A stretch of DNA of 60,723 bases from the NCBI GenBank assembly GCA_036172245.1, contig JAYWIR010000022.1:3162001-3222723 (forward strand), written 5' to 3'. Source of the DNA: Raillietiella orientalis (taxonomy: Eukaryota). The position numbers were made by a program, and so were the translations under genes. Positions 3,698-59,916 of this stretch are shown here, piece by piece. Under the pieces are notes generated by a model. That model searched no databases, was not told the DNA's origin, and saw nothing but the letters and a program-made list of their open reading frames with translations. Numbering within the stretch: position 1 is the first letter of the stretch; the number at the start of each line of letters is the position of its first letter.

Positions 3698-3870
3698 TGG
3701 AAAGGCTTGCGGAGATCGGTCGCGACCGCCAAGGCGCCCGGCGCTTCCTCAGGCCGAATGCACCTACGCCTGGCCGTGGCAGCCGTCGTTGCGGTTGCCT
3801 GGCTGTCGTGCGTCACGCGTCGCTGTAGCTCGAGCCACGTGCGTGCGAATAGCAGCTTCGCCTCCATGGA
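3698..3870 (-). mobile_element. Short inverted RT fragment abutting the preceding hairpin
   Basis: Minus strand reads PGRSMEAKLLFARTWLEL...GALAVATDLRKPF, homologous to the RT region at 34600-34780 and 1870-1900. Confidence 0.65.
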
Positions 3871-4264
3871 CCGTCCGGGAACACGAGGGTTTTTTGTGAT
3901 GCTCCCGGGCCGGGTCACCCATGAAGTCTGCTCATCACGACATTCATGCTGAGACGTTGCAATTTGACAACGCTGCATCGCAAGATCTCTTTCGAAAGGA
4001 GTTTGCTGCAAACGTTTGGATGGTCTACGGAAATCACCAGTAAGCACCAAGTTTGTTATACGTTTAACTTCTGCTATCGAGTTTTTCCGTTTTCCATCAC
4101 TTTGCTTGATTCTTAGCCTTGTACACTTCTTGAAATGCAACCGCGGGTTTGTGAGAGAATCATTTGTTTTAAGAGGGAAGGTGGCTCACATTACCTTATG
4201 CATTAAAGTTCGAAGTTCTCTGTACTTGCATTGCAGCCATAATAAACGGTGCTTGTAAAGTCAT

Positions 4265-9373: not shown

Positions 9374-11306
<1,933 letters not shown>

Positions 11307-19575: not shown

Positions 19576-20896
19576 ATGGGTTGCAAGGATAAGAAATCGG
19601 GCTGGAAAGCCAGTTATTTTACAAAAGTTGTGGTAGGTTGACAGAACAATTAATTACAATATTTCCTAAATGAATCGGATGAAATTGCCTCCCTGTATAA
19701 TGCTGCTAAAGATGCATCAGTGCCAGAAATGGTTGAACCCAACTGATTGCTTAGCAGCAAATGCGCTTTTGAGGCTGTCTGAAGGTTAAAAAAATTTAAT
19801 TTGCTTTGCTCCTTTTTATTTTAAAATTTCAATAATTCAAAATCTTTTAGGATCAGTTCAATGAATATCCGAGGTGTTTTATTGTTAATGCAGATCATGT
19901 TGGATCAAAGCAAATGCAACAGATCCGGATTACGCTTCGCAACGTAGCAACTGTGCTAATGGGAAAAAACACAATGATTAGGAAAGCAATTCGCGGTTAT
20001 TTGGATAGGAATCCAAATTTAGAGAAGTAAATGATTTACTTAAGGGAGCATTTCAGTATGGATGTGTTTATGTGTTGGTAGGATTCTTCCTCATATTAAA
20101 GGAAATGTAGGATTTGTGTTTACCAAAGAAGATTTAGTTGAAGTTCGAGAAAAGCTTTTAGCCAATAAAGTTAAGGTACCTGCCAAAGCCGGAGCAGTTG
20201 CACCGTGTGATGTAATAATTCCTGCTCAAAATACAGGGATGCCTCCGGAAAAAACATCGTTTTTCCAGGCATTACAAATTCCTACTAAAATTTCTAAGAG
20301 TAGCATCGAAATTCTTGTAAGTAATGTTGTGAACTAATGCCAATTTAATCAAATTATGAGTAGAATGATGTTTTATTGGTTAAAGAAGGAGAAAAAGTAG
20401 ATGCTTCTGCTGCCACCTTACTTAACATGCTTAATATTTCTCCTTTCTTGTATGGACTTGTTGTTAAACAAGTATATGATTCTGGGACAGTGTTTGATCC
20501 TTCGATTTTGGATATCAAACCTGAGCATTTAGTTGATGAGCTGAAAGCAGGTCTTGCAAATGTAGTTAGTGTTTGCCTGCAGATTGGGTACCCAACTGCA
20601 GCCTCTGTACCACATTCAATCATAAATGGGTTCAAAAACCTTTTATCTCTTGCGGCAGTTACAGATATAGATTTCAAGGAAGCCAGCACTCTGAAGGAGT
20701 ATTTGAAGGTATTTCAAAACTTAAATGATATAAGTAATCAGTGTAATTTTAGGATCCAAGTAAATTTGCTGCATATGTTGTGTCGTCTGTTCCTAGCAGT
20801 GATGCTACTGTTACAAAAGTAGAACAGAAAAAAGAGGAGATTAAGGAAGAAAGCGAAGAGTCAGATGAGGATATGGGATTTGGATTGTTTGATTGA
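19576..20896 (+). CDS. RPLP0: 60S acidic ribosomal protein P0 (uL10), 5 coding exons
   Basis: Exons 19576-19632, 19851-20026, 20082-20316, 20364-20708, 20753-20896. Motifs [30 protein letters not shown] and C-terminal [22 protein letters not shown] at 20907-20912. Confidence 0.97.
19665..19785 (+). ncRNA. Intronic C/D-box snoRNA, U22 (SNORD22)-like
   Basis: In RPLP0 intron 19633-19850. CCT/AGG terminal stem, AATGAA near the 5' end, internal TGCTGCTAA/TTAGCAGCA stem, GGTTGAACCCAACTG and CTGTCTGA (box D), all resembling vertebrate U22; 121 nt. Confidence 0.7.
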
Positions 20897-21106: not shown

Positions 21107-22469
21107 ATGAGTCTCAAAGGCAGAAAAGCAAATAAGAATCCACCAATTTTTAGTCATGAATTTGTTATACAGAACCATGCTGACTTAGTATCAATGCTGG
21201 TTATTTTACTGCTCCTTGGCCTGATGTTTCAGGTCACAGCACCTATTTCTTCCCTTTTTGTTACTCCTTCTCATAATGTAACAGATTCACAGAATTCGGA
21301 AGTTACTTTGTACACATATGGAATCCATGATGTTCGATGTGTTTTTTTCTATATGTTGATATGCATTCTGCTACATGCTATGCTCCAGGAATATGTGCTA
21401 GATGTAGGTCATCTATGAATTTGAGATCACCAATTTGTGTTTACAGAAGGTAAATCGCAAGCTCCATCTGTCCAAAACTAAGAATAGCAAATTTAATGAA
21501 TCTGGTCAGCTGCTGGCTTTTGGCCTTGTGTCTGTGATTTGGGGTGGTGATCTTATCCATACGTAAGAACTGTGTATACAAAGGAAGTTTGCATTAATGG
21601 CATTGGTATAGAGGTGGTTATTTATGGAACATTCCTTCACTCTGGGAAGGCTACCCACATATTCATATGGGCACATCATACAAATTGTTTTTTATCACCC
21701 AAATAGCTTATTGGATTCACACATTCCCTGAACTGTATTTACAGAAAGTGAAAAAAGAGGAACACATGGAACGTATGCATGTCAGTTTGCATTACCTAGT
21801 GTTTATCTTAGCTGCTTACTGTTTTTGGTAAGTATGAAGGTTTTTAAATAGCAGTGATGTATGTATTTAGCTATACACGGATTGCTTTGTGCCTGCTTGT
21901 TAGCCATTACGTTGTGGAGGTTTTGTTCCATGCATTTCAGATTTTGGCATTTGCTGATCGAAAGCCAATTTCTGAAATTGGTAAGTATGGTGAATTTTCT
22001 TGGAATCCAATTTGGGTTTAGGTTTCATGCTGTGGAATGTGGTTTTTGTGTTGGTCCGCTTGGGATCAATAACATTGTCTGTGCTCACCTTTTGGTATGG
22101 GATGGCAGCTAGTGATTCCATTGGTTTGACTATTCTTGGAATTCATTTGAATGGAAAAGTGATGAGGATGGCTTCATTAGTGGCTATTTGCACACTGCAA
22201 GCATGCCTCCTGTGGCTGTTCATTACATTTCATATGCAAAAGATGAGAGAAAGGGCAGCTGATAAGATGCAGCAGCAGAAAAAACAAGGTGATCAGCGTG
22301 CAAAAAAACTGAAAGCAGAATGTGAGTATAGGATGAGAGAAAATGTAAACCTTACCATGTTGTAGCCAAGCGGAATTCTGAAGAGGATATGAATGAGCTG
22401 CCAGAGGTGGACCAAAATACAAAGAAAAACTTTAAAGGAAGAGGAGCTTTCAAGGCAAAAGGCCTTTGA
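21107..22469 (+). CDS. TRAM1: Translocating chain-associated membrane protein (TRAM1-like), 6 exons
   Basis: [73 protein letters not shown]; GT-AG introns of ~42-50 nt; TGA ends at 22469. Confidence 0.95.
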
Positions 22470-33385: not shown

Positions 33386-33455
33386 AGTCTTGCGCACGGG
33401 CAGTATCGTAGGCGAGGAAGGTGACTGAGCCGCGATTATTGCTAGTTGAAAACTT
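33386..33455 (+). pseudogene. U4 snRNA 5' fragment (retrocopy) with 11-bp flanking direct repeat
   Basis: AGTCTTGCGCACGGGCAGTATCGTAG...GCGATTATTGCTAGTTGAAAACT matches the U4 5' domain; no Sm site follows; CTTCCTCCACA at 33376-33386 and 33453-33463. Confidence 0.85.
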
Positions 33456-33789
33456 CCTCCACACGCAACGTCGTCTACCGCAGCGAAGTTTCCAGCTTCG
33501 CGAAGAATCGACCCTGCTTCTTGCTGGATGAACGGCGCCCCATCGATCAGTGAGGCGAGTTCATCTTTCTCTCTCCTCCCCCTTCACCTCTCTGCTGACT
33601 GCGCGGTTCGCGCCAGAGATGCATCCTCCGGCTATTGGGATTCGAACTCTCAGCAGCACCCATAAAGATTCCCATGGCCCTCTCTCTAATCATCTTTTTC
33701 TCCTAGCCCTCAGATCTCAGAGTGTCGCAGAATCCGTCTGTTTTTTCTGGACCAGCACTCGCAGCAGCTTGCGTTCAGCATTTCGTGGA

Positions 33790-34350
33790 TGGATTCCAAG
33801 GTTCAATGGAGTTCCACCCTGGAATCTTCTCAAGGGGGGAGATCCGCTTCATTTTTCTTCTCCGGAGGGGACCCGCTAGGGAATCGTTTCCTGTTCATTC
33901 CTGAAAAGAACCTCGAAGGGACTCTTCCGAAATCCAGAAGGGACACTGTTTCTCCAGAGGAATCGATTGCTCTCGCTTCCTTGCACTCTCTGGAGAGGTG
34001 GCGACGCACTTGCTCCATCAGCACTACTCGTAGGGTCCCCCCACAGAATGGGGAGTTCGCTCCCTTAACAACATCTGGAGGGGTGCCTTACGATAGGGAG
34101 TCCACACTCTGTTGCACAACCGGAGAGGGAACTTCACACTCCTTGATTCCTGGAAAAACTCGAAGGTTGACTAACCTTGTTTCGGCCTTCATCGGGGACC
34201 TTCAGTTTTAAACGCTAGCGGTGCTGCGCCCGAATGTTGGTAGGCCAAACATCTTGCAGGAGGAACTCAAAACCCAACCCTTCTGCGTCAGTTTCAGTCG
34301 GAGTATTGGAACCTGCGACCTATGGTGCCACGCGCGGAAGCCATAACCAC
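33790..34350 (-). mobile_element. tRNA-derived SINE-like repeat (copy 2, more decayed)
   Basis: ATTGGAACCTGCGACCTATGGTGCCACGCGCGGA resembles ATTCGAACCCGCGACTCCTGGTGCCACACGCGGA at ~15823; TCATTTTTCTTCTCCGGAGGGGACC resembles ~15402-15425. Confidence 0.5.
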
Positions 34351-34379
34351 AAAGCCTCCAAGCTCGCGCCCCTGGTGCA

Positions 34380-36555
34380 GAAGATGGAACGGCTGATTCG
34401 AGAAACGGAAGAGGTACTTGCCTCGTTTCGGTCAGCTAAAGTAAGGCTCCTCCCGAAAAGAGGAGGAGATCTACGTAACATCGGCAGCTGGCGACCGATT
34501 ATGGTAGTAAGTGCAGATGCTAAGTTTCTGGAGAAGCTGTGGTCCGAGAGAATCAGACGGGTGGCTGAAACGTTCATAAGTCCGGAGCAGATGTACACTG
34601 TTTCCGGCAGATCGATGGAATGTAACCTATTCCTCGAGAGGACCTGGCTTGCACTGATACAGCGGGGTGACTCAGCAGGACGAGGGAATCCTCGATTCCC
34701 CGCGAGCCAGGGACAGAGAGGTCCTCTGTCGGAGGAATGTCAGGAACTCTTCCGGTCGCGGTCGATCTGAGCCAAGAGTTCGACTGATTCGACCAGGAGC
34801 TCCTCTTAGAGATTCCAGAACGCTTGGGCTGGCCACCCGTATGACTTACTTGCGCTCCTACTGGCATGCTGCGCTGATAAACATCTCTGAAAGAGATGGT
34901 GCAGAGCAGAATTAGGCAGGGAGACAGCCTGAACCACCAGTGCTAAAGAGCACTTTCTTCGAGTTGGTGCTGAGGGAGTACAGGGTTACTTTGGCTACCC
35001 TTCCGAGCTCGTGCTCGGTACGTCTGTCGTGCTAGCCTATGCAGATGATGACCTCTTGCTGCTGCTCCTTAGGTCTGCCCCTGCGGACGGACTCAAGGAA
35101 TTCTATGAGCTATTAAGCAGAACAGGCATCGAGGTGAACAGAGAGAAGACAAGAGTGTGCCCGGTCGGCACGACGTGGTCTGGGCAGTTGGACTGGATCC
35201 GTTTAAGAATCCCCACAGTCCGGTACTTCAAGTACCTCGGCGTGCCTCTAGGGGACATTTCCTCTATGGAAGTGTGGTCGGGCTGCCTCCAGAAAGCAGA
35301 GTCGATACTCGGCCCGTTCCAAGGAGACAACTTCCGGTTTCCGGAGCGGGCCGTCATTTGGAACACTTTTGTGGCCCCTGTCCCCCGACTTCTGGGTTCT
35401 GTTTCACTTCCTCCCCCCGGTGTGGTGAAAAGGACGAAGGGTCTCCTTCGAAAATCCCTCTGGGCCAATAAGAGGTCCGGGGTCCGAGTAAAAGACTAGT
35501 GAGCTCTTCGTCGAGACGGAGGACTTGGACTCCTGACGTTGGAGCGCATGGAAGTTGAACTGAACTTTGCACAGAACTGGGCTACCCATTGGTGTGCCTC
35601 TGCACGTTCGCTCTCTTGGCTGGCGATCGGTGGCGAAGGACTCGCAACACTGTTTGCATGCCACCACCGCTGCCACCCATCTTGCGGCTTCCCATTCCGG
35701 TGTGTCGCTGCTCTGGCGAGAGCGAACACGTGGATTTCATGCCGCCTTGCGAACAAATCGGCCTGACGGCAGGAGAAAGTGAGGACGTGGGCCCAGCTCA
35801 CCCGGACCTTGCTGCCAGAAATTACCTTCTGCCGAGAGTTTCAGAAGAACGGAAGAACATTGGAGTAGTGGCTAATAAGCTGACTGTGCTAGCCTACCCA
35901 GCAGCCACCCCCTTCGCTGTCGCGATGTTCTTCGCTATCGAGTTACATGGCACCTGCCTACCAGCGAAGTGGGAGGTTTCCTGCGAGATCTCGGCCCCTC
36001 AGAAAGCCTGTCGCTGGCTGTACTACGCATCAACTGGCTGTCGCAACAGCAGCAACAACCGGTCCAAAGGACTGGAACGTTGGGACGAACTCTTCTCCAT
36101 TCAGCCCGAAGAGTTCGAAGTGCCCCCTGTGATTCCGGACAGTGAGCTGCTTCCCCTCAATTGGCAGCAATCGATGGCAGCTGGTACTGCACTGAGGTCT
36201 CCAGTGCAATACGCGCCGGCACCACTGGACGAGGGTAAGCTCATCGTCGAAGTGTGCCAGGTGTGGAGAGAAGGAAACCTTCCTCCACCTCATAGTGCAG
36301 TGTGTCGGTCTCCGGGAACTGTGGGAACGTTTCTCTGTGTCCCTTCCGCACTCCGTATACGATCCCAGAGACTCTTTGAGACCCCTCTTCGTGCGGGACG
36401 CCATGACGTCCGCAGCCGCAATCGCAGCGCTGTGCTGCGTCCGCGGTGTTGCGGCGAAGTGCGACGCCGAGAGAGGCCTGAGCGAAGGGGGGGCTGTCCT
36501 GCACGCCATCCACTTTCTGCAGATAGCTTCGAGATGGCCCCACCTGGAAGAATGA
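34380..36555 (+). mobile_element. L1/Tx1-like ORF2 remnant (RT plus zf-RVT), frameshifted
   Basis: LLPKRGGDLRNIGSWRPI, SPEQMYTVSGRS, LAYADD, FKYLGVP; ends RWPHLEE*; no terminal hairpin seen. Confidence 0.85.
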
Positions 36556-48140: not shown

Positions 48141-48147
48141 GCCTTGA

Positions 48148-49600
48148 CACCTGGATATGCCGGGGCATTTATATATGAAAAAATAAAAACACAAAGAATT
48201 GTCGCGTGGCGAACCCGAAGGTCCACCACACCAAAACAGCTTGCTGCTTTCCGACGCTATGCCGGCGAGGTCCTTCCGATGCGCGGGGATGGGAAATAAA
48301 AAACAAAAAGAAACAAAAAGTTCAAATGTGTGGGGGGGGAAAACAAATGTTATAGGGGTGGGAGGGCGGGGAAGGAATCACTTTGCGCTTGGATAGGTCC
48401 TCTAGATCCTATTCAGGATCCGGACAAGCTGAGCCCTGTCTGCGCCTAAGTGGCGCCACTTGCAGACACTGCGCGCGAAAAGGCGAGTCCAGTGTAAGGC
48501 GTTGCCGGTTGGCTGACGCCTTCTTCTGGTGGCGTTCCAAGCCGCCACTATTCCTCGGATGCAGCAGAGGACTGCTACACTAGCGGGCGGGGACAAGGCG
48601 TCACGACAGAAGAGGCGCCTGATAACGTCCTTTGGGCCGCATCCGCGCAAGTCCAGGATCGCCGCAAGACGATCCCACAAAGGGCGGAGGGCGCTACACT
48701 CAAGAAGAAGGAGGGGGAATGTTTCCTTTTCCCCACACCGGTCGCAGTTAGGATCCACAGCCCCCCGGGTGGTGTGATGCAGGCGTGCTTTGAATGGTAA
48801 TCCCCAGAGTACCACAAGGAACGCCACATCCTGCCATTTCAGGGGGAGGGAGCCACTGTTCCAGGACACTGGGAGCCACTTCATCTTCTCCGGAGATAGT
48901 CCGAGTAGCTCGACCCAGCGTCGAATTCCGTTGGGCGGGTCACTCGGCGTCGCAGCATTTGTTGGCTGCCGAGATGTCCACGCCTTTATCGTTTGTGTCC
49001 TGCCGCCTATGGTGCAGGACACGGTCCATTTACCCTGCTCGCTACTGTCCCAGGCATTTATAAGGAAGGGCACCACTGGGGCAAGGGGGGTAATGTGAGC
49101 CCACAGAAGCTTATCGTGGAACTGCACGATCTTCTGCAGCGTCCAGCGGGCGTGGCTTTTTAGGCCAGTGTTCTTTGTGCCCGCCGGAACGTGGATCTTT
49201 TCCCAGGTGGAGACTGACTCATGCAACCATGCAGAGGAGTTCCCTGGGAGGCAGGAGATATAGGTGTTCTCCCGTGCCACAACGGCCATTCGTCGCAGGT
49301 GAAAGTCGTTGTGTGCTTTCCTGCGTTGGCACACCAACGGAAACGACAAAAGTCCGCCGGATCCGAAGGCTCGTTGGGTCAGGAGGCGTGCTGGGACGCA
49401 CCAGGGCGTGTCCCACAGTTCTGCCGCGAGGGCGAGAGTCCTAAATGGAATTTGCACTTCCATGCGCTCCAGCGTAAGAGCGCCAAGTCCACCATCCTTG
49501 CGTGGATAGCACAAGTCTTTGAGTCTCACACGGGACCTCCCTTTGCCCCAAAGGACTGTCCTCAGGAGACCCGCTGCTCTTTTACGGACAAAATGAGGAC
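48148..49600 (-). mobile_element. 5'-truncated L1/Tx1-like element fused to virus-like segment 3
   Basis: ORF 48402-49529: RKDGGLG...VDPNCDRCGEKETF; terminal motif at 48148-48172. Confidence 0.85.
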
Positions 49601-50969
49601 CTTAGAGCAGAACGCCTCCCACTCAGGGGAGAAGTCTTATTTTGATTCCACAGCCTGTTGCGACGTGTGGGGATAAGCATAGCGTTGACTTTGGATATAC
49701 GTTTAACATAAATGATCCCAAACGTTCGAGGGTAGAGTCTGCGTCTGAGTCATTAAAGTTGGTTCTACGTTGCCCAGTTATGTAACGAGCATTAATGTGG
49801 TGGTGCATCTCATTTAACATAATGCCCGCATAGGCTTCGCCCAGAAATATCATTTTCGATCTCTGGGCAGTTGGCAGCTTGTGCCCAGTTTACCAAGCGT
49901 TCAAACGCTTCGTAGGCCACAGCATGCCTATGAGTGCCTGCGAGTGCCTACGAGTGTCTCCACGTGGAGACAAAAACCTCAAAAGTGCGTCTTGGGAAAT
50001 CGTTACGGGCTTAAAGGGTGGACCATGCACAGTTAAGAGGACAGACTGAATCATATGCGTAAAGCCAGCTAATTCTAATACACGTAATGTGCTACATAAA
50101 TGTCCGAGAGTGTGAGCTACGTCCATGCCCTTTTCCTCCGACAGGGGAGACCGGGCAAACAACGACCGCCACACTTAAAGTGGATAGCCAGCACCCCTTG
50201 TGCTGTCTTTTCTGACTCCTGTATGGTGATTCGTTAGCCACCACGACACTTTAGTCGCGATGACTAGTACCATACAATTCGTGGAAAGCTGTTGGTTCAA
50301 TGCTGCCTGACTTGAAGCTCTCTGCGCGGATGTTAGATCATAGCTCTGTGTAGTCGGCCTCCAATCGCCGTCTGGTACAAGCACCCCGTTGACTGATCGA
50401 TATCGCACCATGTCGTACGTGAGCAGTGCATGGATTCCATTAACCATGAATGTAAGTTGAGCATCCTTGAATTGTTTCGAGCTGTATAACCACCCATTGG
50501 CTACAGCTGCCATGTTCTTGATGGATACTCTCGAATTTGTGGGTTGGTACACAGGTAAACGCTTATCTTCTGGGAAATCTATGTCAGTTCCAGTATTCAA
50601 CCCGATCTCGATATCTCCATGGAGATCAGGGAGGCTGTTACTGTATTCCTCGAAAGTGGACACAAGTTCATCTTCACTAGCTGCAGCCATTACATACTAA
50701 GTCAAGTACTACCTGAGGTGAGAAAGAACATTAGCATCTTTTGCAAAGTCACATGCCTACCCTATTAACCCCAATTGCCATGCATGAACCATAACATGTA
50801 CATTCCCAGCACTCGACTTCCATTATCACAGTCTATAAACATGCTTATCATGCCTATAAGGGTCCCGGGGTCTACCTGGCCACTGTGATGTTGGACCGAG
50901 TCAGTGTTGATTTTTCATTGATGATGAAGGCTGTGATCCCACTCCTTCATTTTACGACGTAGAACCCTC
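49601..50969 (-). pseudogene. Putative endogenous viral element, nucleoprotein-like segment copy 3 (CDS from 50690; disrupted, 3'-truncated)
   Basis: Homologous to copies 1 and 2 (IATKVSWWLTNHHTG, HTLGH, HINARYITG); intronless; stops and frameshifts. Viral assignment is from recalled motif similarity. Confidence 0.6.
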
Positions 50970-51323
50970 GTGTTTGAAGTCCCCCGCGACGAGGTGCGGC
51001 ACTTGGGGGCCGGAGTTGTTGAGCCAGTGGCTCTGCACCTCACCAAAGAAAGCTACTCTTTCTTCGAGGTAGCGAGAGCCACTCGGCGCGTAGACGTTCG
51101 TAACGACGAGATCGATGGACTCGGACCACTTGATGACAAATTGGCCTACCCGTCCGTCGTCGTCGAAACGAACACTACGCACCGCTTCCGCCATTTTTCG
51201 TCGTACGAGGAACGTGACGCCGCACATGTGTGAGTCGCCGCACCGCCAATGTAGCGTTCCTCCTGCGCGCTCCTCGATTTCGGCTGCCTGCTCGTCGGAG
51301 ATTACGTGAATCTCCTGCAGGGA
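50970..51323 (-). mobile_element. APE endonuclease-domain fragment of the L1/Tx1-like family
   Basis: LQEIH, CGVTFL, DDDGR, NVYAP, HLVAGDF are canonical APE motifs. Confidence 0.85.
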
Positions 51324-53010
51324 CAGCCACGCCATCGCAAACCACACCTTGTGTTCCATCGACTGCCTATATGTGAGTGACCCAATAAACTACACACACA
51401 AAATCCAACAAACTTCATTCATACAATATTAACATATACAGTCATGAACACAGAGTAATGGCACGATATAGGGAGGGCGATCACTTTTTTATTGCATGGG
51501 CTCGGCCGCAGGCAGAACTTACTCGTGTTGCCTCAGCCTAATGGCTCGGGGAAGCCTATGTTCAAATGTCCTGATCGCCTCATATAGCTTTGTTCTTATG
51601 CCTGCTATGCGATCAGTCCCTAGGGTAGGAGTGATCATCTCTATTGTCTTGAGTGAAAGTTCTTTGGGGAATTTGGAACAAAAGGCTTCCCACTCAGGGG
51701 TGAAGTCCTCTTTAGATTCTACAGCTTGTTGTGACATGCGGGGAGAGGCACAACGTGGATTTAGGATACACATTTAACATGAATGATCCTAAACGTCCAA
51801 GGGTGGAATCAGCATCCGAATCATTAAAATTGGTTCGGGCTTGACCGGTTATATATCGTGCACCAATATGGTAATGTTTCGCATTCAGCATTATTCCCGC
51901 ATAGGCTTCCCCCAGGAATAGCATATTTTCAATCTCTGGGCAATTGGCCGCTTGTACCCAGTTGACTAAGCGCTTGAACGCTTGATAGGCAACCGCATGC
52001 CTGTGGGTGCCGGCGGGTGGTGACAAGAATCTTAAGAGTGCGTCCTGCGATATTGTAACGGGCTTGAAGGTTGGCCCATGCACAGTCAAAGGGATAGATT
52101 GTATCATTTGTGTGAAACCAGCCAGTTCGAGCACATGCAACGTGCTACAAAAGTGCCCAAGCGTGTGAGCAACATCCATTCCCTTTTCTTCTGATGAGGG
52201 AGATCGGGCAAATAGCGAACGCCACACTTTAAGCGGGTAACCAGCACCTCTTGTACTGTCCTTACGTACACCGGTATGGTGATTGGTTAACCACCACGAC
52301 ACCTTAGTTGCGATAACCAACACCATACAGTTTGTAGCAAGCTGCTGGCTGGCTGGATGCCCTTTGTGCGGAAGTCCAGTCGTAACGTTGTGGAGTTGGC
52401 CTCCAGTCCCCGTCTGGCACAAGTACTCCATTGACGGATCTAAATCTTATCATGTCATATGCCAATAATGCGTAAATTCCATTTATCATTAGGGTTAACT
52501 GGGCGTCCTTGAATTGCTTTGAACTATAAAGCCACCCGTTAGCCACTGCTGCTATGTTCTTAGTAGTCAATCTGGCATTAGTGGGTTAATGTATCGGCCA
52601 ACGCTTATCCTCGGGTAAGGCTATGTCCGTCCCAGTAGTCAGCCCGATCTCAATGTCCCCATCAAGATCAGGGAGACTGCTACTATATTCTTCAAACGCA
52701 GCTGCAAGCTCATCCTCACTCGCTGCAGCAATATTGCACCGGAACAAGTACTACCTGAGGAAAGAAAGTGCATCAACACTCATTGTAGAGACATATTCCC
52801 ACCCCATTTCCCCCAGATACCATGCATGAACCATAACATGCTCATCTCCAGTATTCGGCTTCCACTATTACAGTTCATATACATGCTCAGCATGCCCATA
52901 AAAGTTATGGAGTCTACCTGGCTACTGTGATATTGGATCGAGTTCGTATTGATATTCGGATGATTTTTAAAGCGATGATCGCACTCTCTTATGTTACGAC
53001 GAAGAACCCT
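51324..53010 (-). pseudogene. Putative endogenous viral element, nucleoprotein-like segment copy 2 (~1.7 kb with UTRs; CDS ~52730-51490, disrupted)
   Basis: FEEYSSSLPDLDG, TKVSWWLTNHHTG, SPPAGTHRHAVAY, YHIGARYITG; start codon lost; frameshifts. Confidence 0.6.
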
Positions 53011-53040
53011 CAGGTATTATAGCGGGAGATTGAAATTTGT

Positions 53041-53849
53041 CACCCGGTCACGCCGGGGCGTTTATTAATAATAAGAAACCGGTCAGGGACAATGTCCCCA
53101 ACCAACAGAACGACAGGGAACAGAAAGGAATTACCGGCACGCAGGCCTGGCAAACAAACCGCTTGCAACGTGGGAGGAATGAGGGGAAAACAAACAAAAA
53201 TCAAAAACTGGAGGGAAGGGTAACGGGTTTTTGGTTAGGATCCGTACTCACGGGGATTTAAACGGGGAGCACCTGAAATGTTCCGGAGCCTATGGGGATG
53301 CGGATGTAAAAAGAAAATACAAAATTAGTTCATGGAGGGTAGGGCAATGATCACTGGGTTGGTCGCTGCTGAGCTTGTGTAAACCGGCGGTGTATTTCGG
53401 CGAGATTCCTTCTTGACTCCTGTCAAATGAGGCCATGTAGCGGCTGCTTCCATGTAGAAGGATGCTTTGCCGATTACCTCTTGGTGCTGCCCGTTGATTA
53501 CCAACGCCTGGCGGACTGAAACTATCGCGCGTATGCAACCGATGGTTGCAATCCTTGCGCTTAGGGACAGACCGCTCGGCGTGAAGAATCGTCGCAGCAA
53601 GTCTCTTGCGGTGTCCACGGGATGCATTAGTGCTGTTGCCAGCCTACGCCACGGTCCTTGTAGGACACCGCAGTCCAGAAGTAGGTGTGGGATCGACTCC
53701 GTCGACCCGCATCGAACGCAGTTCGCAGATGCAAGTTCCCCGGAGTCTCGATGCCAACGCTCGTTGCACTGAAAACCCCAGTGAACGAAAAGCAGCACGG
53801 CTTGTTTCCAAGCAAGGGGGAGCAGCGAACTGTCAACACTGTGAAAAAG
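53041..53849 (-). mobile_element. 5'-truncated L1/Tx1-like element fused to virus-like segment 1
   Basis: HWGFQCN...NCVRCGSTESIPHLLLDC; terminal motif at 53041-53066. Confidence 0.85.
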
Positions 53850-55622
53850 CAGCCACGCCATCGCAAACAAAACTCTCGGTTCCACCATCACGATATTATA
53901 TCTGAAATGATAACAATAGATAAGTGAAAAACCACTGTCAGTACTGTATGCCCTTTATTATCACGTAATTACAACTTAATCCATACAGACTAATAACAAT
54001 AATGATACAATCAACAATAACAACTGGAACCACATCCATTCTGGTTGTACATTGCAGGTCAAATGTAATCTTGCACTTAAACTGGCTCAGCAGCTGGGAT
54101 AATTTCCTCATGTGGTTGCACATCATGTAACTGGGGCATCCTCTGCTCAAATGCGCGAATCGTCTCATACAGCTTGGTACGTATCTCTGCTACTTTGTCC
54201 ACTCCGGGTGTTGGTAAGATCATTTCTATGGGCTTCATGGCTAACTCTTTGGGAACTTTTGCATAGAAACCGTCCCACTCTGGGGAAAAATCTTTGGATT
54301 CAATAGATTGCTGAGTCATATGGGGGGATGAACACAAAGTAGACTTAGATTAAAGGTTCAGCATGAAAGAGCTTAAGCGTCCTAGGGTACAGTCCGCATG
54401 AGCATCATTAAATACACGCCTGGGCAAACCAGTTAAGTATTTTGCTCCGATGTGATACATTTTCGAGTCCAGCATTATATTGGCATATGCTTGCCCCAGA
54501 AAGATCATGTTTTCAATTTCCGGGCAGTTTCCTTCTTGTGCCCAGTTTACCAGTCTTCGAAAAGCCTGGTACGCCACAGCATGCCTGTGGGTACCGGCTG
54601 GTGGTGATAGAAATCTAATCAGAGCATCCTGGGAAATTATTAGTTCTTTGAATGGCTCTCCAGTTATATGCAAAGGATAAGTCCGCACAAGTCCAACAAA
54701 TCCAGCTAACCTAAGCACCTCTAATGTGCTAGCAAAATGCCCAAGTATGTGAGCAGTCTCCATTGCTCTCTCTTCTGACACTGGAGACCTACCAAATAAA
54801 GCTCTCCATACTTTCAGAGGGAAGCCTGCGCCTCTCGAGCTATCGCGCCTTACACCGGTATGATGGTTTGTTAACCACCAGGATACCTTGGTGGCAATAA
54901 TCAACACCATCATGTTGTTAACCATTTGTTGATTAATAATCGTAGGGGCAGCTGATCTTTGTCCAGGTGTAGTATCATGCCGAGTGGTGATCACTTTCCA
55001 ATCTCCATCTGGGACCAGAGGCTGACCTTCACCTTCTCTCTTGAATCGTATCAAGTTATAGGTGAGCATACCATACACCTTATTCATCATCATGGACAAA
55101 GGGGTGTCTTTATATAACTTCGTAGAGTGTATCCAACCGTTAGCAACTGCGGCTATATTCTTTATAGTAGCTGTTGCATCAGTTGGTTGGTATATTTGCA
55201 GTTTCTTATCGTCAGGTAACGCAATGTCCGTACCAGTCGTAAGCCCAAGCCCGATATTCCCATCTAGGTCAGGCAAACTGGCACTATATTCTTCGAAAAC
55301 ATTGGTAGGAACCTCTGGATTTGTGGTAGCCATTTTATCGTAGATATGTAGCAACCTACAGTGAGAGAGATCTGGTTAGATTACATAGGATAATAAGGAT
55401 ATTCCCCCCTAAAATCCACAAAACCCAACATTGTGCTCATGCAGGTGATTGAGGCCAGGTGTTTCATGCAGTTAGTGACTGTTATCTGACAGCACTTTCA
55501 CCACACTTATGGAAATACCTGGTTGTCCTGAGTAGCCTCTAAGATGAACGAGGGTTCTGACATTTCGATAATAAGCTGTAGGGTATGGATAGTATACGAC
55601 GACATACATTCAAGGGGGGTCG
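53850..55622 (-). pseudogene. Putative endogenous viral element, nucleoprotein-like segment copy 1 (~1.8 kb; CDS 55333-54077, ~420 codons, one frameshift near 54350)
   Basis: ORF 54350-55354 continues in the 54077-54337 frame. Intronless, with a composition unlike the flanking LINE. Motifs ATKVSWWLTNHHTG, PPAGT and YHIGAKYLTG resemble, as recalled, qinvirus-like segment-2 proteins. Confidence 0.6.
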
Positions 55623-55630
55623 GAGATTGA

Positions 55631-55699
55631 AGTTTTCAACTAGCAATAATCACGGCTCAGTCGCCTTCCTCGCCTATGATACTGCCCGTGCGCAAGGCT
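55631..55699 (-). pseudogene. U4 snRNA 5' fragment (second copy)
   Basis: Reverse complement AGCCTTGCGCACGGGCAGTATCATAG...GATTATTGCTAGTTGAAAACT is nearly identical to 33386-33454. Confidence 0.85.
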
Positions 55700-55740
55700 A
55701 TCAGGTGAAGATAAGTTGAGATTGAAGTAAGATTTGAACG

Positions 55741-55858
55741 GAGATTGAAGTCTCCCGCTATCAGGTGAGCCTTTCGCACGTTTGTGTCCGCCAGCCAGTT
55801 TCGTTTTAGGGTTTCCAGCAACCTGGTACGGTCGGGATAGCCCTTTTTCCCGCTGAGT
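55741..55858 (-). mobile_element. Short APE-domain fragment ending at the GDFN motif
   Basis: Reads RLLETLKRNWLADTNVRKAHLIAGDFNL, paralleling FFGEVQSHWLNNSGPQVPHLVAGDF at 50975-51050. Confidence 0.7.
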
Positions 55859-57706
55859 TCACACCCGGATGTGCCGGGGCATTTATTTCATGGAAATAAA
55901 AATACATTAAAATGTCGCGTGGCGAACCCGAAGGTTCACCACTCCAAAACAGCTTGCTGGTTGCCAGCTCTATGCTGGAGAGGTCCTTCCGATGCGCGGG
56001 GATGGGAAATAAAAAACAAAAAGAAACAAAAAGTTCAAATGTGTGGGGAGGGGAAAGCAAATGCTATAGGGGTGGGAGGGCGGGGAAAGGATCACTTTGC
56101 GCTTGGATAGGTCCTCTAGATCCTATTCAGGATCCGGACAAGCTGAGCCCTGTCTGCGCCTAAGTGGCGCCACTTGCAGACACTGCGCGCGAAAAGGCGA
56201 GTCCAGTGTAAGGCGTTGCCGGTTGGCTGACGCCTTCTTCTGGTGGCGTTCCAAGCCGCCACTATTCCTCGGATGCAGCAGAGGACTGCTACACTAGCGG
56301 GCGGGGACAAGGCGTCACGACAGAAGAGGCGCCTGATAACGTCCTTTGGGCCGCATCCGCGCAAGTCCAGGATTGCCGCGAGACGATCCCACAAAGGGCG
56401 GAGGGCGCTACACTCAAGAAGAAGGAGGAGGAATGTTTCCTTTTCCCCACACCGGTCGCAGTTAGGATCCACAGCCCCCCGGGTGGTGTGATGCAGGCGT
56501 GCTTTGAATGGTAATCCCCAGAGTACCACAAGGAACGCCACATCCTGCCATTTCAGGGGGAGGGAGCCACTGTTCCAGGACACTGGGAGCCACTTCATCT
56601 TCTCCGGAGATAGTCCGAGTAGCTCGACCCAGCGTCGAATTCCGTTGGGCGGGTCACTCGGCGTCGCAGCATTTGTTGGCTGCCGAGATGTCCACGCCTT
56701 TATCGTTTGTGTCCTGCCGCCTATGGTGCAGGACACTGTCCATTTCCCCTTCTCGCTACTGTCCCTGGCGTTCACAAGGAAGGGCAGCACTGAGGCAAGG
56801 GGGGTTATCAGAGCCCACAGAATCTGGTCGTAGGACTGCACCATTTCCTGCAGCGTCCAGCGGGCGTGCCTTTTCATACAAGTGTTCCTTGTGCCCGCCG
56901 GAACGTGGATCTTTTCCCAGGTGGAGACTGACTCGTGCAACCAGGCGGAGTAGTTCCCTGGGAGGCAGGACATCCAGGCGTTCTCCCGAACCGCAACGGC
57001 CATGCGTCGCAGGTGAGAGCCACAGTGCACTTCTGCCGACGAGCGCCAACAGAAACGACAAAGATCCGCCGGCTCGTTGGGCCAGGAGGCGTGCTGGGAT
57101 GCACCAGGGCGTGTCCCACAGTTCTGCCGCGAGGGCGAGAGTCCTAAACTGAAGTTGCATTTCCATGCGCTCCAGCGTAAGAGCGCCAAGTCCACCGTCC
57201 TTACGTGGAGCGCACAAGTCTTTGAGCCTCACACGGGACCTCCCTTTGCCCCAAAGGACTGTCCTCAGGAGGCCCACTGCTCGTTTTCGAATAAAATGAG
57301 GGGCGGGGCACACAAAAAGTAGAAGGCGAAGGAGGGGGCCGCAAACGCGTTCCACACCGCGGCCCGTTCCTGCAAGTAGAACTTGCCTTCTTGGAACGGA
57401 CCGATCGCCAAGGCTGCCTTTTGGAGACGTTCGGATCAGACTTTCGCTGCGCAGAAGTCCCCCAACGGTACGCTGAGATACTTGAAGCACCTGCTCGTGG
57501 GGATCCCCAAGCGGATCCAGTCCGACCGTCCAGCCCACGCCGAACCGACAAAGACCATGGACGACTTCGCCCTGTTCACCTCCAGGCCCGTCCCGCGGCG
57601 CAGCAACTCGAAGAAGTCCTCGAGTGCACTCGCCGGGGTGGACCCGGGAAGCAGCAGCAGAAGATCGTCTGCATAGGCCGACACGGCAGGCGTGCCGGCA
57701 CACGAG

Positions 57707-58590
57707 CTCGGCAGGGTTGCCAGAGATACCCTGTATGCTCTTAGCGCAGTAGATGCTGGAGACCGGAGTAGATGCTGCAGCTGTGCATGTATATGGCGCC
57801 CTTCTTGAGGTAGAGAAATTTGGCAAATGTGGTTTTGCCGTGTCCACCTTCGGGGTCGAAGAACCAGTATATTTTTCTGACGTCAGGGGTTGTTCTTATA
57901 AGTTTTAGTATGTCTATCTGCCATGTACGAAGTTGGAGTCCAGCCATGGGATTTGGATGTAATCGGCTTCTTGTTAATCGGAAGCATTCTTTGACGAAGT
58001 TTATGTTTTTGCTGTAGAACTTCGTATGGTTTTCCAGGATGTCAAGCTCTGTTGCTCCGTTTTTAATTTGCTGGAGAATCTGGAAGATATTGGAATTATT
58101 ATCATAATATATTATAATTACCATGTCCTGGTAGTCGGTCGTTTCTTTGTGTTGTTGTAATAGGCCGTATGTCCACGCTTCCTTATCTTCTTTTGTGCAG
58201 TACCGTAAGTTGCTTTCGGGTGATCCTTTTGCTCGTTCGAGATGTGCTTTGTCGAATGGCGGTCTTTTGAGGCTTGGCAAGGTTCGTGGATCGCGTAACT
58301 GGAAATAGCCTTGCAGGTGAGGTGTTCCAGTGGAAGCTGTTTCCTTGCCGATGACTGCATAGGTACATTGGCGTCTGCACCATTCTTTTATCTGTTGGAG
58401 TTCTTCTTCGATGTAATTGCATAGTGTGAAACACCAATAGAGAAAGTGTCCGTAGGGCATGATGTCTTCAGAAATTCTGTCGAGGTGAGACTGGTGTATG
58501 CCTCATTGTGTGGTGGTATATATACTTGGTAACTCGGCAGGGTTGCCAGAGATACCCTGTATGCTCTTAGCGCAGTAGATGCTGAAGACC
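57707..58590. repeat. 58-bp direct repeat of LINE sequence flanking the Rep insert
   Basis: 57707-57764 and 58533-58590: 52 bp identical (CTCGGCAGGGTTGCC...GTAGATGCTG), then one mismatch, then AGACC. Confidence 0.9.
57765..58460 (-). pseudogene. rep: CRESS-DNA-virus Rep (HUH endonuclease plus start of SF3 helicase), nanovirus/circovirus-like, 3'-truncated
   Basis: RCR motif I WCFTLCN, motif II PHLQGY, motif III YCTKE, Walker A IYWFFDPEGGHGKTT; the sequence breaks off before Walker B. Confidence 0.92.
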
Positions 58591-58878
58591 AAAGGGCTCA
58601 GGCTTTCACCCTGCCGTATGCCGCGGCGCACAGGCACACCGTACACTTGCCGGCCGCTGAAACCAATGTTGATTATCGCGTTGCGCCAGCAGGAGCGCAT
58701 GTAGGAATGGAGCACGGCCGGCAAACCCATGCGTTCCAAGAGCTCCAGAAGGAGTTCCCGATCTACGCAGTCGAACGCCTTGTGCTCTCTAGGGTGGACG
58801 CGTTTTCTCGGTGCTCCTCGTGCCAGGAAGTCTCCCCCAGTGCAAGCGTCGTGTGGTTCGGTGGTCGATCAGGCAGCG

Positions 58879-59916
58879 ATGCCTGACGCGACCACCAGGG
58901 ATGGCCAGGGGGCAGCGGCAACGCTGGCCCCAGAGGCGATGGAGAGCCAGGAGGCGGCGGCAACGTCGCCCCCGGAGGCGATGGAGGTGGGGGCATCCGG
59001 CCCCACAGAATCGGTCCCCGCTGCAGCGCGGGCGTGGAGCGCCGTTGTGTCGGCGCCATCACCTGCAGCCGCGGCGGAATTGTCGGCCTATGTAGAGGAG
59101 GGGTACAACCCCTCATTGTTCTACAAGGTAGGCAATTTATATTCTTTAGAGAGCGCGCGCGCCTTCTCGAAGGGCATGCGCGCTCTCGATGTAAAAGAGG
59201 AGGAGCTTAGCGCTATGACCATCCGCAGCGGGGGTCAGTACGTTGAGGTCATCTGCAAACAAGCAGAGCTGGCCCAACGACTGCTTAAAACCCCCGTTGT
59301 GATGGGGACGCGCAGGCTCCTCCCAACTACGGCGGACCGCAGCATGGTGGTCCACCTGTTAGGCGTGACCGCGCGAATGCGCAAAGAACAGGTTCGCGCC
59401 GCTTTGGAACAGTTTGGAAGGGTCCACGCGCAGTGGACGAAAGTTAGTCCTTTCGAGGACTACACGGGGCTGCAACACGGCCTCACTGCTGCGCGCGTGA
59501 CCGTTCGGGAGGGCTGCACTCTTCCCCACTAACTGGTGGTCGAAGGCGAAACCGTCGACCTCTGGTATGTGGGGAAGCCGAAATACTGTGGCTTCTGCAA
59601 TACGTCGGGCCACCTCAAAAAGAGGTGTCCCAATGTGCAGTGCCAAGTATGCGGCACAATGGGCCACACGAGGGAGGTGTGCTCAAAAGCAGCAGTGCGG
59701 GTGGTTTCCAAGAGAAACCTTAAAAAACGCGCCCGGCTTCTGCAGAAAAGGCTGGCGGCGAAAGCTGCCGCGAAGGCTGTGCCAATCGCGCCCAAGACCC
59801 AGGCCGCACCCGTGACCCCGGCGACCAACGCCGAAAAAGTTGAGGGAGACGCCCAGGAGACTGGGTGGCAAGTGGCAGCGGACAAAAAATCAAAGAAGGA
59901 GAGGAGGATGGAATAG
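58879..59916 (+). mobile_element. L1/Tx1-like ORF1 (Gag-like, two CCHC zinc knuckles) with an internal stop at 59530-59532
   Basis: CGFCNTSGHLKKRC and CQVCGTMGHTREVC; WSAVV motif; RRM-like VRAALEQFGRV. Confidence 0.85.

Follow-up and report, generated by a model that had tools for sequence, protein, structure and literature searches.

In a 60,723-nt stretch of Raillietiella orientalis DNA (assembly GCA_036172245.1, contig JAYWIR010000022.1, positions 3,162,001 to 3,222,723; hereafter the window), three nucleoprotein copies, designated c1, c2 and c3, were identified, and we regard it as likely that they are endogenous viral elements derived from S-segment RNA, captured by a template-switching LINE reverse transcriptase (RT), with most of their divergence dating from the virus phase. 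The RNA copied would be the nucleocapsid-coding small (S) segment of negative-strand RNA viruses akin to qinviruses (order Muvirales), and most of the difference between the copies would have built up on virus segments replicating under purifying selection, not after integration. The features of the region are collected in Table 1.

Table 1. Viral copies, LINE pieces and associated features, with positions as numbered in the window
Feature	Position	Strand	Remarks
LINE A, 5'-truncated LINE 3' part	48144..49598	-	zf-RVT; 92% identity to 55858-57301
c3 nucleoprotein pseudogene	49598..50690	-	ATG present; three stops; three frame changes; 3'-truncated at about codon 360
c3 5' UTR	50691..50972	-	
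APE2, open LINE endonuclease fragment	50976..51389	-	145 codons; between c2 and c3; LQE motif region to GDF
c2 nucleoprotein pseudogene	51489..52732	-	without ATG; two stops; two frame changes
c2 5' UTR	52733..53015	-	283 nt
LINE B	53040..53888	-	endonuclease start of 39 nt, joined to LINE C-terminal region (zf-RVT) and hairpin of the 3' end
c1 3' UTR/spacer	53889..54076	-	weak likeness to c2 spacer (score reached by 23 of 500 shuffles)
c1 nucleoprotein ORF	54077..55333	-	418 codons plus terminal stop; ATG kept; in-frame stop 54350-54352
c1 5' region, presumed viral 5' UTR	55334..55536	-	203 nt between U4 copy and c1 ATG
Full-length U4 snRNA copy	55537..55699	-	fused head-to-tail, directly 5' of c1
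APE0, LINE endonuclease (EEP) fragment	55747..55854	-	lies upstream of U4; GDFN motif at its end
LINE A-prime, RT and C-terminal part	55858..58868	-	carries Rep fossil
Circovirus-like (CRESS) Rep fossil	57765..58532	-	within LINE A-prime RT domain; Pfam Viral_Rep E 8.7e-16

Relationship to qinvirus nucleoproteins

The first-pass annotation, made from the DNA letters and their translations, had tentatively named Qinviridae as the source of the copies. This assignment holds: when c1 and its relatives were made into a search profile, named qinvirid nucleoproteins were retrieved, namely those of Sanxia qinvirus-like virus 1 (E 2.7e-73), the ICTV exemplar of the species Yingvirus sanxiaense (PMC10721934), Shahe qinvirus-like virus 1 (E 1.8e-53) and Beihai sesarmid crab virus 4 (E 1.7e-50). 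The profile search yielded 741 representative clusters at E <= 0.001, and qinvirid names were found on three of the 10 clusters looked up. A BLASTP comparison, which had been proposed as a check, showed 35% identity between c1 and the Sanxia nucleoprotein over 182 aa (E 2e-26); the closest relatives are viral, and not cellular or transposon proteins.

Among 1481 candidates, 12 relatives of c1 were detected at E <= 0.001, originating from ant genomes and from contigs of 1.2-2.3 kb. A second word-indexed protein search, run with the alignment, added only one further protein, and sequence searches of Pfam, NCBIfam and PDB with c1 gave nothing useful. The copies of the nucleoprotein present in ant and beetle genomes are most simply regarded as further viral fossils. 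A quick tree placed c1, c2 and c3 in one clade (SH-aLRT 100) on a long stem of 1.58, with no free-living virus sequence between the three copies, and the nearest of the 162 proteins retrieved is at most 40% identical across at least 200 residues. Judged by their sequences, the copies appear to represent a deep qin-like lineage that is so far unsampled as free virus. The family rank of Qinviridae rests on the polymerase (L segment), and a scan of 92 of the 111 ORFs in the window revealed none resembling a polymerase.

The predicted fold points in the same direction. The AlphaFold model of c1 (pLDDT 78, pTM 0.80) was compared with the BFVD models using Foldseek, another of the checks proposed, and seven matches at E <= 0.001 were obtained; the best six are named qin-like nucleoprotein models (E 4.5e-18 to 2.2e-11, TMq 0.66-0.83) and the seventh is nameless. 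Foldseek of the same model against PDB gave no match at E <= 0.001. Solved structures provided one weak whole-length match, the N protein of hPIV3 (Z 4.7, rmsd 5.3, 191 aligned), and the wide structural search with c1 otherwise returned mostly helical-bundle matches to residues 245-327.

Likeness and lesions of the three copies

The three homologues are intronless, as had been claimed, and all lie on the minus strand. Blastn of the window against itself showed 73.6% identity between c2 and c3 over 1380 nt (49594-50969 vs 51665-53011) and 65.4% between c1 and c2 over 1174 nt. The view that c1 is the more distant copy agrees with the amino acid identities, which are 65% to c2 and 61% to c3, as compared with 84% for c2-c3. 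The peptide said to be common to c2 and c3 could be confirmed as 27 identical residues at 52231-52311 (c2) and 50178-50258 (c3); 15 of the 81 nt differ, all of them synonymously (two at first, none at second and 13 at third codon positions).

A frameshift correction had been envisaged for c1 but is unneeded, since its frame is continuous and its sole break is the in-frame stop at codon 328. The same copy keeps all 23 of the testable residues that are invariant across the 12 relatives. Lesions in c2 comprise the absent ATG, stops at 52586-52588 and 51519-51521, and frame changes near 52357 and 51729; those in c3 are a stop at 50175-50177, two stops within inserted sequence, and frame changes near 49963, 49851 and 49661. 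It had been stated that every copy has its own disabling mutations, and private lesions do occur in each, but c2 and c3 also have in common a frame change near codon 341, which is odd for two separately captured viruses. Over the 18 codons downstream of this shift, eight are identical, eight differ silently and two change the residue. The lesion loads are unequal (one in c1, four in c2 and about six in c3), which counts against an explanation by capture. At present c2 and c3 are dead and c1 is one stop codon short of an open frame; none of the three has the maintained intact frame of a domesticated viral nucleoprotein gene. With coding capacity lost in all three, and viral sequence lying amid LINE fragments on both sides and cathepsin exons, the copies have the characteristics of endogenous elements. 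The cathepsin exons are located at 9448-10594 of the window.

Divergence and selection

The proposal that the copies diverged under purifying selection was corroborated by differences of 0.58-0.73 at four-fold degenerate sites (0.576, 0.654 and 0.727 for the three pairs) beside pN values of 0.09-0.25. The pN/pS pairs are 0.090/0.810 for c2-c3, and 0.226/0.803 and 0.245/0.876 for the others, and are not indicative of a dN/dS near 1. For c2-c3, differences at the first, second and third codon positions amount to 0.147, 0.069 and 0.546. Third-position differences are evenly spread and no identical run exceeds 14 nt, so that a gene-conversion tract is absent, and gene conversion as the source of the frameshift common to c2 and c3 was rejected for want of a tract of raised identity. 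The strong purifying selection on the copies therefore excludes recent genomic duplication followed by neutral decay. Set beside a 5' UTR difference of only 0.26, the silent-site divergence of c2-c3 is the pattern of RNA virus segments and not of neutral host DNA. The first-pass annotation had concluded that the copies came from different viruses by independent captures. The divergence under purifying selection supports different viral sources, but independence of capture is put in doubt by the single clade, the LINE fragments with the same limits and the common frameshift. The copies may go back to one multi-template capture, to several captures or, less probably, to an old duplication kept under selection.

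LINE fragments, the U4 copy and their junctions

The U4 copy spans the whole of the Rfam model RF00015 (positions 1-138 of 138), with 63 bits where the gathering score is 46 (E 1.2e-12). It is full-length, in the same orientation as c1, and 5' of the c1 UTR and ORF, as in a chimeric retrocopy. A second U4 copy was observed at 33386-33466, upstream of another LINE RT. Candidate 28-nt target-site repeats around the chimera have a common 10-nt exact core but, compared by hand, agree in no more than 19 of the 28 positions, and a clean target-site duplication around U4-c1-LINE B was accordingly dropped; no poly(A) tail was seen.

The LINE endonuclease fragments have matching limits, with starts after c1 and c2 and GDFN ends before c3 and before U4-c1. 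A LINE 3' end stands at the 3' end of the chimera, LINE B after c1 and LINE A after c3. LINE B (Pfam zf-RVT E 0.012) has a 19-nt exact repeat and a 3' hairpin motif, and its start agrees with the start of APE2 in 33 of 36 aligned columns (none of 500 shuffles is as good). The Pfam match of APE2 to Exo_endo_phos (E 0.0019) is under the cut-off, and of its 30 feature hits in a protein atlas, 23 belong to the set of clusters displayed under Pfam Exo_endo_phos, at scores of 0.94. In tblastn within the window, APE0 and APE2 are 31% identical over 36 aa (E 5.5e-4); their nucleotides align gap-free at 43.5% identity, with the second codon position least changed. A third endonuclease-start copy was considered at 3799-3873 and rejected, the match being weak (E 0.039) and the surrounding sequence lending no support. 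The junction alignment showed the cut end of c3 joined to LINE A via 5-6 nt of microhomology (CCTCA), and no remainder of c3 was found beyond LINE A. For the LINE ORF at 48402-49601 no homologue was found.

Direct repeats of 58 nt, identical at 57 of 58 positions, stand on either side of the Rep fossil (57707-57764 and 58533-58590), as expected if the enzyme had left the LINE RNA and then returned to it. A LINE ORF1 of the zinc-knuckle type occurs on the plus strand at 59533-59913 (zf-CCHC E 0.025, below the Pfam cut-off), and LINE fragments lie on both strands elsewhere in the window.

Segment architecture

The c2 unit consists of a 283-nt UTR, a 1244-nt ORF and a spacer of about 130 nt, which is the layout of an S segment. 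It measures ~1.5 kb from 5' UTR to stop codon, in keeping with the segment-length argument made earlier, and S segments are 1.6-1.9 kb long according to the ICTV (PMC10721934). In related free contigs, 1.6-1.8 kb in length, the 5' UTR takes up about 230 nt. The 5' UTRs of c2 and c3 are 73.8% identical over 279 nt with a three-base periodicity; the c1 5' region could not be aligned to the c2 UTR (274 of 500 shuffles score as well). Several other readings of these regions were discarded. A U4 origin for the 5' regions of c2 and c3 found no Rfam U4 match even at E <= 10, and conserved hairpins in the spacers that follow c1 and c2 were rejected at z-scores of -1.04 and +0.60. The idea that the 5' filler nucleotides are cap-snatched leaders was dropped given the mononegavirus-type capping domain in the ICTV profile of Qinviridae (PMC10721934). 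An assignment of the APE-like region to the viral segment was ranked low, since conservation is much higher in the endonuclease start than in the flanking UTRs.

Alternative explanations and proposed origin

The order of nucleoprotein then endonuclease recurs head to tail with matching boundaries, for which a duplicated composite unit would be the simpler explanation: one capture beside a LINE endonuclease fragment, two duplications of the resulting ~2.05-kb unit, a long period of host selection, and recent inactivation of all three copies. The monophyly of the copies, the frameshift common to c2 and c3, and the preservation in c1 of every testable family-invariant residue with one stop only would all accord with this history. 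We nevertheless consider it improbable. Neutral host flanks should diverge at least as much as silent sites, yet the four-fold sites are near saturation while the c2-c3 UTRs differ by 0.26 and the endonuclease starts are nearly identical. APE2 is still open over 145 codons, and the gap-free alignment of APE0 with APE2, in which the second codon position is best kept, suggests two LINE lineages and not old neutral duplicates. Furthermore, purifying selection persists downstream of the common frameshift, which is not predicted for a truncated host gene, and U4 lies exactly at the unit junction.

A nucleoprotein-like gene serving as the first ORF of a LINE family, with the copies as diverged subfamilies, would owe its purifying selection to transposon function, and c1 and c2 do each lie 130-190 nt upstream of an ATG-started endonuclease reading frame. 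This arrangement is very unlikely to be a genuine LINE, since the endonuclease fragment lacks an alignment to the Pfam profile before position 34 of 225, stops after c2 at the GDF motif with c3 following instead of a reverse transcriptase, and is joined after c1 directly to a LINE C-terminal piece. The LINE ORF1 observed in the window belongs to the zinc-knuckle type, and relatives of the protein occur on free contigs of 1.2-2.8 kb and in named qinvirids. Membership of named qinvirid nucleoproteins in the profile family, together with the agreement of the fold with qin-like models, also makes it scarcely credible that a cellular or transposon protein family merely resembles nucleoproteins, even though Pfam and NCBIfam matches are absent and some ant-genome relatives are annotated as 'uncharacterized protein'.

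Capture of viral RNA by the host LINE machinery is the origin that we favor. PMC2104539 describes LINE reverse transcription with double template jumps and with jumps at specific sites. The U4 fusion, the c3-LINE microhomology, the matching endonuclease limits and the Rep fossil with its 58-nt repeats argue for an RT that would have switched templates among LINE RNA, U4 snRNA and viral RNA, leaving LINE pieces, U4 and viral copies as a mosaic on one strand, without ordinary host DNA between them. We infer both the RT mechanism and the timing of capture, rather than observing them directly. It is conceivable, although rather unlikely, that the mosaic from ~48.1 to 58.9 kb is a single cDNA from one LINE RT run with at least eight hops, reading on the minus strand 5' to 3' LINE A-prime (Rep inside), APE0, U4, c1, LINE B, c2, APE2, c3 and LINE A. 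Three distinct S-segment RNAs would then have been present in one germ cell at once, through triple infection or in a qin-like virus with several paralogous nucleoprotein segments, and the c2/c3 frame change, which has visible selection to either side, would reflect true recoding by that virus, through polymerase slippage or ribosomal frameshifting, and not damage.

The copies would record an unsampled deep qin-like lineage and its infection of the host germline. The U4 fusion, LINE fusions and Rep insert with its 58-nt repeat may be considered unusually direct sequence evidence of the entry of viral transcripts into a genome, by a route that would cover transcripts of RNA viruses and small DNA viruses alike. 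The c2/c3 frame change offers a concrete prediction for living relatives. As to present activity of the copies, the sole plausible one would be as a template for small RNAs.

Comparison with known systems

The find is another case of endogenous viral elements, a kind already known. In the endogenous bornavirus-like nucleoprotein elements (EBLNs) of mammals, nucleoprotein mRNA of a negative-strand RNA virus was put into the germline by LINE machinery, and these elements show poly(A) tails and target-site duplications. Here neither of the two is clear; instead there are U4 and LINE fusions, and three diverged copies stand side by side. The layout of snRNA, second RNA and LINE 3' end is the same as in the snRNA-LINE chimeric retrocopies (U6-L1; bipartite and tripartite forms in Magnaporthe and mammals), whereas here the snRNA is U4, RNA-virus RNA takes the middle place and the flanking repeats are candidates only.

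Viral-fossil clusters feed piRNA production in Aedes. Compared with such arthropod clusters, the present locus has three qin-like N copies and a CRESS Rep amid transposon fragments in one orientation over ~10 kb, while LINE fragments elsewhere in the window are on both strands. Among the papers retrieved, none describing qinvirid nucleoprotein fossils was found; the closest of them is a sea-louse study reporting piRNAs from qin-like sequences (PMC10287012). Little is known of the family Qinviridae: virion and replication are given as unknown in the ICTV profile (PMC10721934), and trypanosomatids are the only confirmed hosts according to PMC11108086. The likeness to the Qinviridae S segment (Sanxia) extends from the profile (E 2.7e-73), BLASTP (35% over 182 aa) and predicted fold (TM 0.83) to the single large ORF, long 5' UTR and ~1.5-1.6 kb unit (PMC10721934). 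The copies differ from that segment in being chromosomal DNA with stops and frameshifts, and in belonging to a deep lineage, no more than 40% identical to any of the 162 relatives retrieved.

Identity of the encoded protein

The c1 protein, taken from one of three nucleoprotein-like homologues (c1, c2 and c3) read as endogenous copies of the small, nucleocapsid-coding (S) segment of qinvirus-like viruses, matched nothing in Pfam, NCBIfam or PDB sequence searches. Of 1481 candidates in a word-indexed protein search, 12 qualified as relatives at E <= 0.001; two of these are ant-genome proteins labelled "uncharacterized", and the others lie on contigs of 1.2-2.3 kb. The profile built from 13 sequences (c1 and the 12 relatives) was run against 1.84 billion representatives and retrieved 741 clusters at E <= 0.001, including 259 at E <= 1e-30. 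Ten clusters were examined: virus names were present on three (Sanxia qinvirus-like virus 1, whose member is a nucleoprotein on a 1653-nt contig, Shahe qinvirus-like virus 1 and Beihai sesarmid crab virus 4), and a beetle genome protein was also found within one of the ten. Sanxia qinvirus-like virus 1 is the ICTV exemplar of Qinviridae (PMC10721934), and in a direct alignment its protein shares 35% identity with c1 across 182 residues (E 2e-26). Residues 1-327 of c1 were modelled with AlphaFold2 from the 13-row alignment (pLDDT 78, pTM 0.80); the best six BFVD matches of the model were qin-like nucleoproteins (E 4.5e-18 to 2.2e-11, TM 0.66-0.83), and a seventh significant match had no name. 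The matches that came next, ophiovirus and rhabdovirus nucleoproteins, were below significance (E > 0.04). Because of the named profile matches, the direct Sanxia alignment and the qin-like fold matches, the protein family was verified as qinvirid. The Qinviridae assignment made in the first-pass annotation is thus upheld at the protein-family level, the family rank itself being polymerase-based, and the BLASTP and Foldseek checks proposed there both led to qinvirid or qin-like nucleoproteins. Foldseek gave no significant match of the model to solved structures. A wide structural aligner gave a weak whole-length match to the parainfluenza virus 3 nucleoprotein (Z 4.7, rmsd 5.3, 191 aligned), a result in line with, though not proof of, the paramyxovirus-like fold that ICTV notes for qinvirid nucleoproteins (PMC10721934).

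The three copies and 48 proteins chosen from the 162 retrieved (the 11 initial hits, the three with names and, among those 330-560 aa long, the first 34 in order of id) made up the 51 rows of a quick maximum-likelihood tree, in which the copies form a single clade (SH-aLRT 100, stem 1.58) nested inside qin-like proteins. Since c1 shares no more than 40% identity with any of the 162 proteins across at least 200 residues, and the copies form one clade on a long stem, their viral lineage is new.

Features identified in the window (window positions)
Feature	Position	Strand	Description
c1	55333 to 54077	minus	418-codon frame starting with ATG; sole defect one in-frame stop, 54350-54352
c2	52732 to 51489	minus	no ATG; stops 52586-52588 and 51519-51521; frame changes near 52357 and 51729
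c3	50690 to 49598	minus	ATG present; stop 50175-50177 and two stops within inserted sequence
c3 frame changes	near 49963, 49851, 49661	minus	c3 ends at about codon 360
U4 snRNA, complete	55699-55537	minus	Rfam 63 bits, E 1.2e-12, model 1-138
Second U4	33386-33466	plus	Rfam 59 bits; model ends 1-138 in 81 nt, hence internally shortened
LINE RT	34219-35496	plus	second U4 about 750 nt upstream
LINE A	49598 to 48144	minus	5'-truncated; 92% identical to 57301 to 55858
APE2	51389 to 50976	minus	LINE endonuclease fragment between c2 and c3; 145 open codons
Rep fossil	57765-58532	minus	circovirus-like (CRESS DNA virus); 253 open codons; Pfam Viral_Rep E 8.7e-16
Rep-flanking direct repeats	57707-57764, 58533-58590		58 nt of LINE sequence; 57/58 identical
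LINE ORF1-like frame	58705-59913	plus	repeated from about 60300
Cathepsin-like ORFs	9448-10594	minus	three exon-like ORFs; Peptidase_C1, best E 4.9e-22
Weak Pfam match	20364-20819	plus	ribosomal protein P0 insertion domain, below cut-off
Weak Pfam match	21994-22362	plus	TLC domain, below cut-off

Divergence and selection

Comparison of the window with itself by blastn bore out the three homologous copies, all on the minus strand, with 73.6% identity between c2 and c3 over 1380 nt and 65.4% between c1 and c2 over 1174 nt. The 27-residue peptide said to be identical in c2 (52231-52311) and c3 (50178-50258) is indeed so, 15 of its 81 nt differing and every change being silent. When c2 and c3 were placed codon by codon on c1 by frameshift-aware alignment, differences at codon positions 1/2/3 were 0.147/0.069/0.546 (c2-c3), 0.302/0.184/0.590 (c1-c2) and 0.314/0.212/0.641 (c1-c3), and four-fold sites differed at 0.576, 0.654 and 0.727, respectively. 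Nei-Gojobori pN/pS values, left uncorrected because silent-site saturation was too high for a corrected dS, were 0.090/0.810, 0.226/0.803 and 0.245/0.876 for the same pairs. With pN far below pS in all pairs, the proposed divergence under purifying selection is supported, and neutral decay following genomic duplication is excluded. The c2-c3 differences are evenly distributed (longest identical run, 14 nt), with 128 transitions and 62 transversions at third positions. At 23 testable positions unvarying in the 12 relatives, c1 retained 23, c2 22 and c3 19; the single position lost in c2 is also lost in c3.

The 279-nt 5' UTR of c2 and c3 differs at 0.26, and 5' UTRs of related free contigs measure about 230 nt. 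A non-coding UTR far better kept than silent sites is the pattern of a replicating RNA segment, unlike host flanks. Within these UTRs (52780-53022 and 50765-50962), change follows a three-base periodicity (0.34/0.14/0.30), and homologous open frames of 49-78 codons (minus strand) and 55-61 codons (plus strand) might represent a small extra gene.

The frame of c1, said earlier to need frameshift correction, is continuous apart from its one in-frame stop. Each copy carries private lesions, as had been claimed, but one net frame change is common to c2 and c3, located in both at one position near codon 341. Over the 18 codons that follow, read in the new frame, eight are identical, eight differ silently and two change the residue, which shows that the new frame was under selection between c2 and c3; conservation of the old frame was not apparent when the alignment outputs were read by eye. 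The common change could stem from genuine recoding in the virus lineage of c2 and c3, from losses that occurred in parallel at a small repeat, or from a short conversion that escaped detection.

Architecture of the locus

The complete U4 lies head-to-tail with c1, 203 nt upstream of its ATG. LINE A, the piece joined to c3, starts exactly where c3 ends at codon 360, with 5-6 nt common to both partners at the junction, and no remainder of c3 was found beyond it. APE2 fell below the Pfam cut-off (E 0.0019) and scored 0.94 to Exo_endo_phos clusters in the protein atlas. The same endonuclease start follows c1 (33/36 aligned columns identical; 0/500 shuffles as good), fused to a C-terminal LINE piece and a LINE 3' end. 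Immediately upstream of U4 is APE0, an endonuclease fragment from another LINE (43.5% nt identity to APE2) with the same GDFN end motif, and a short "TTCAATCTCC" remnant lies upstream of c2. The Rep fossil sits within the RT domain of the next LINE upstream, in the same orientation, and together with its flanking repeats this suggests that a Rep transcript was captured in the course of LINE reverse transcription. From 48.1 to 58.9 kb only RNA-derived pieces were observed, in a single orientation.

The 12-mer ACTTCAATCTCC occurs four times with at most one mismatch (0.35 expected; minus strand, 55622-55751 and 53025-53036), at or near unit junctions in every case: inside U4, at the GDFN-coding endonuclease end, between those two, and directly upstream of c2. 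It may be a microhomology steering template switching. The second U4 and the plus-strand LINE RT probably form a U4-LINE chimera. By eye the two U4 copies show three differences, each at a CpG site, a possible sign that the host methylates CpG. Two CCHC-like zinc-knuckle motifs were seen by eye in the ORF1-like frame (Pfam zf-CCHC E 0.025, below cut-off); its plus-strand position means that the transposon pieces of the window are not all in one orientation. The Pfam scan covered 92 of the 111 window ORFs of at least 110 aa, and the ORFs matching papain-family cysteine protease belong to a spliced host cathepsin gene.

Discussion

Fusion to U4 is a hallmark of template switching by LINE reverse transcriptase. 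Bipartite and tripartite chimeras have been reported for LINEs, as has switching at preferred sites (PMC2104539, PMC4476161). The U4 fusion, together with the Rep insert and its 58-nt repeat, where the enzyme would have left the LINE RNA and then returned, suggests that viral S-segment RNAs were captured by a template-switching LINE enzyme. No poly(A) tail was found at the locus, and comparison of the flanks by hand found no clean target-site duplication, the best candidate repeats matching at 19 of 28 positions. As for how many events took place, a single multi-jump event would fit the absence of host DNA between the pieces, the position of U4 exactly at a junction and the repeated landings directly 3' of the GDFN-coding site. 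Several events would fit the unequal numbers of lesions (1 in c1, 4 in c2 and about 6 in c3), a difference that is not significant.

A rival to template-switching capture is one capture followed by tandem duplication, with the copies long under host selection. Such a history would account for the repeated boundaries; however, it conflicts with the conserved c2/c3 UTR, the nearly identical endonuclease start and its still open frame, and the selection past the common c2/c3 frameshift. Of the proposals in the first-pass annotation, different viral sources for the copies are supported, but independent captures are not demonstrated, the tree showing no interleaving of the copies with other viral sequences.

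Within the parts of the literature on Qinviridae fossils consulted, supplements of which might list some, no description of a qinvirid nucleoprotein fossil was found, and the nearest report there is of sea louse piRNAs from two qin-like sequences (PMC10287012). The locus is a non-retroviral endogenous viral element derived from the nucleoprotein gene of a negative-strand virus, which is a known type of element. The classic case of such fossils is the bornavirus-like elements of mammals, which, like this locus, are endogenous nucleoprotein genes of a negative-strand virus; the novelty here lies in the family of the virus, in how deep its lineage is and in the U4-virus-LINE architecture.
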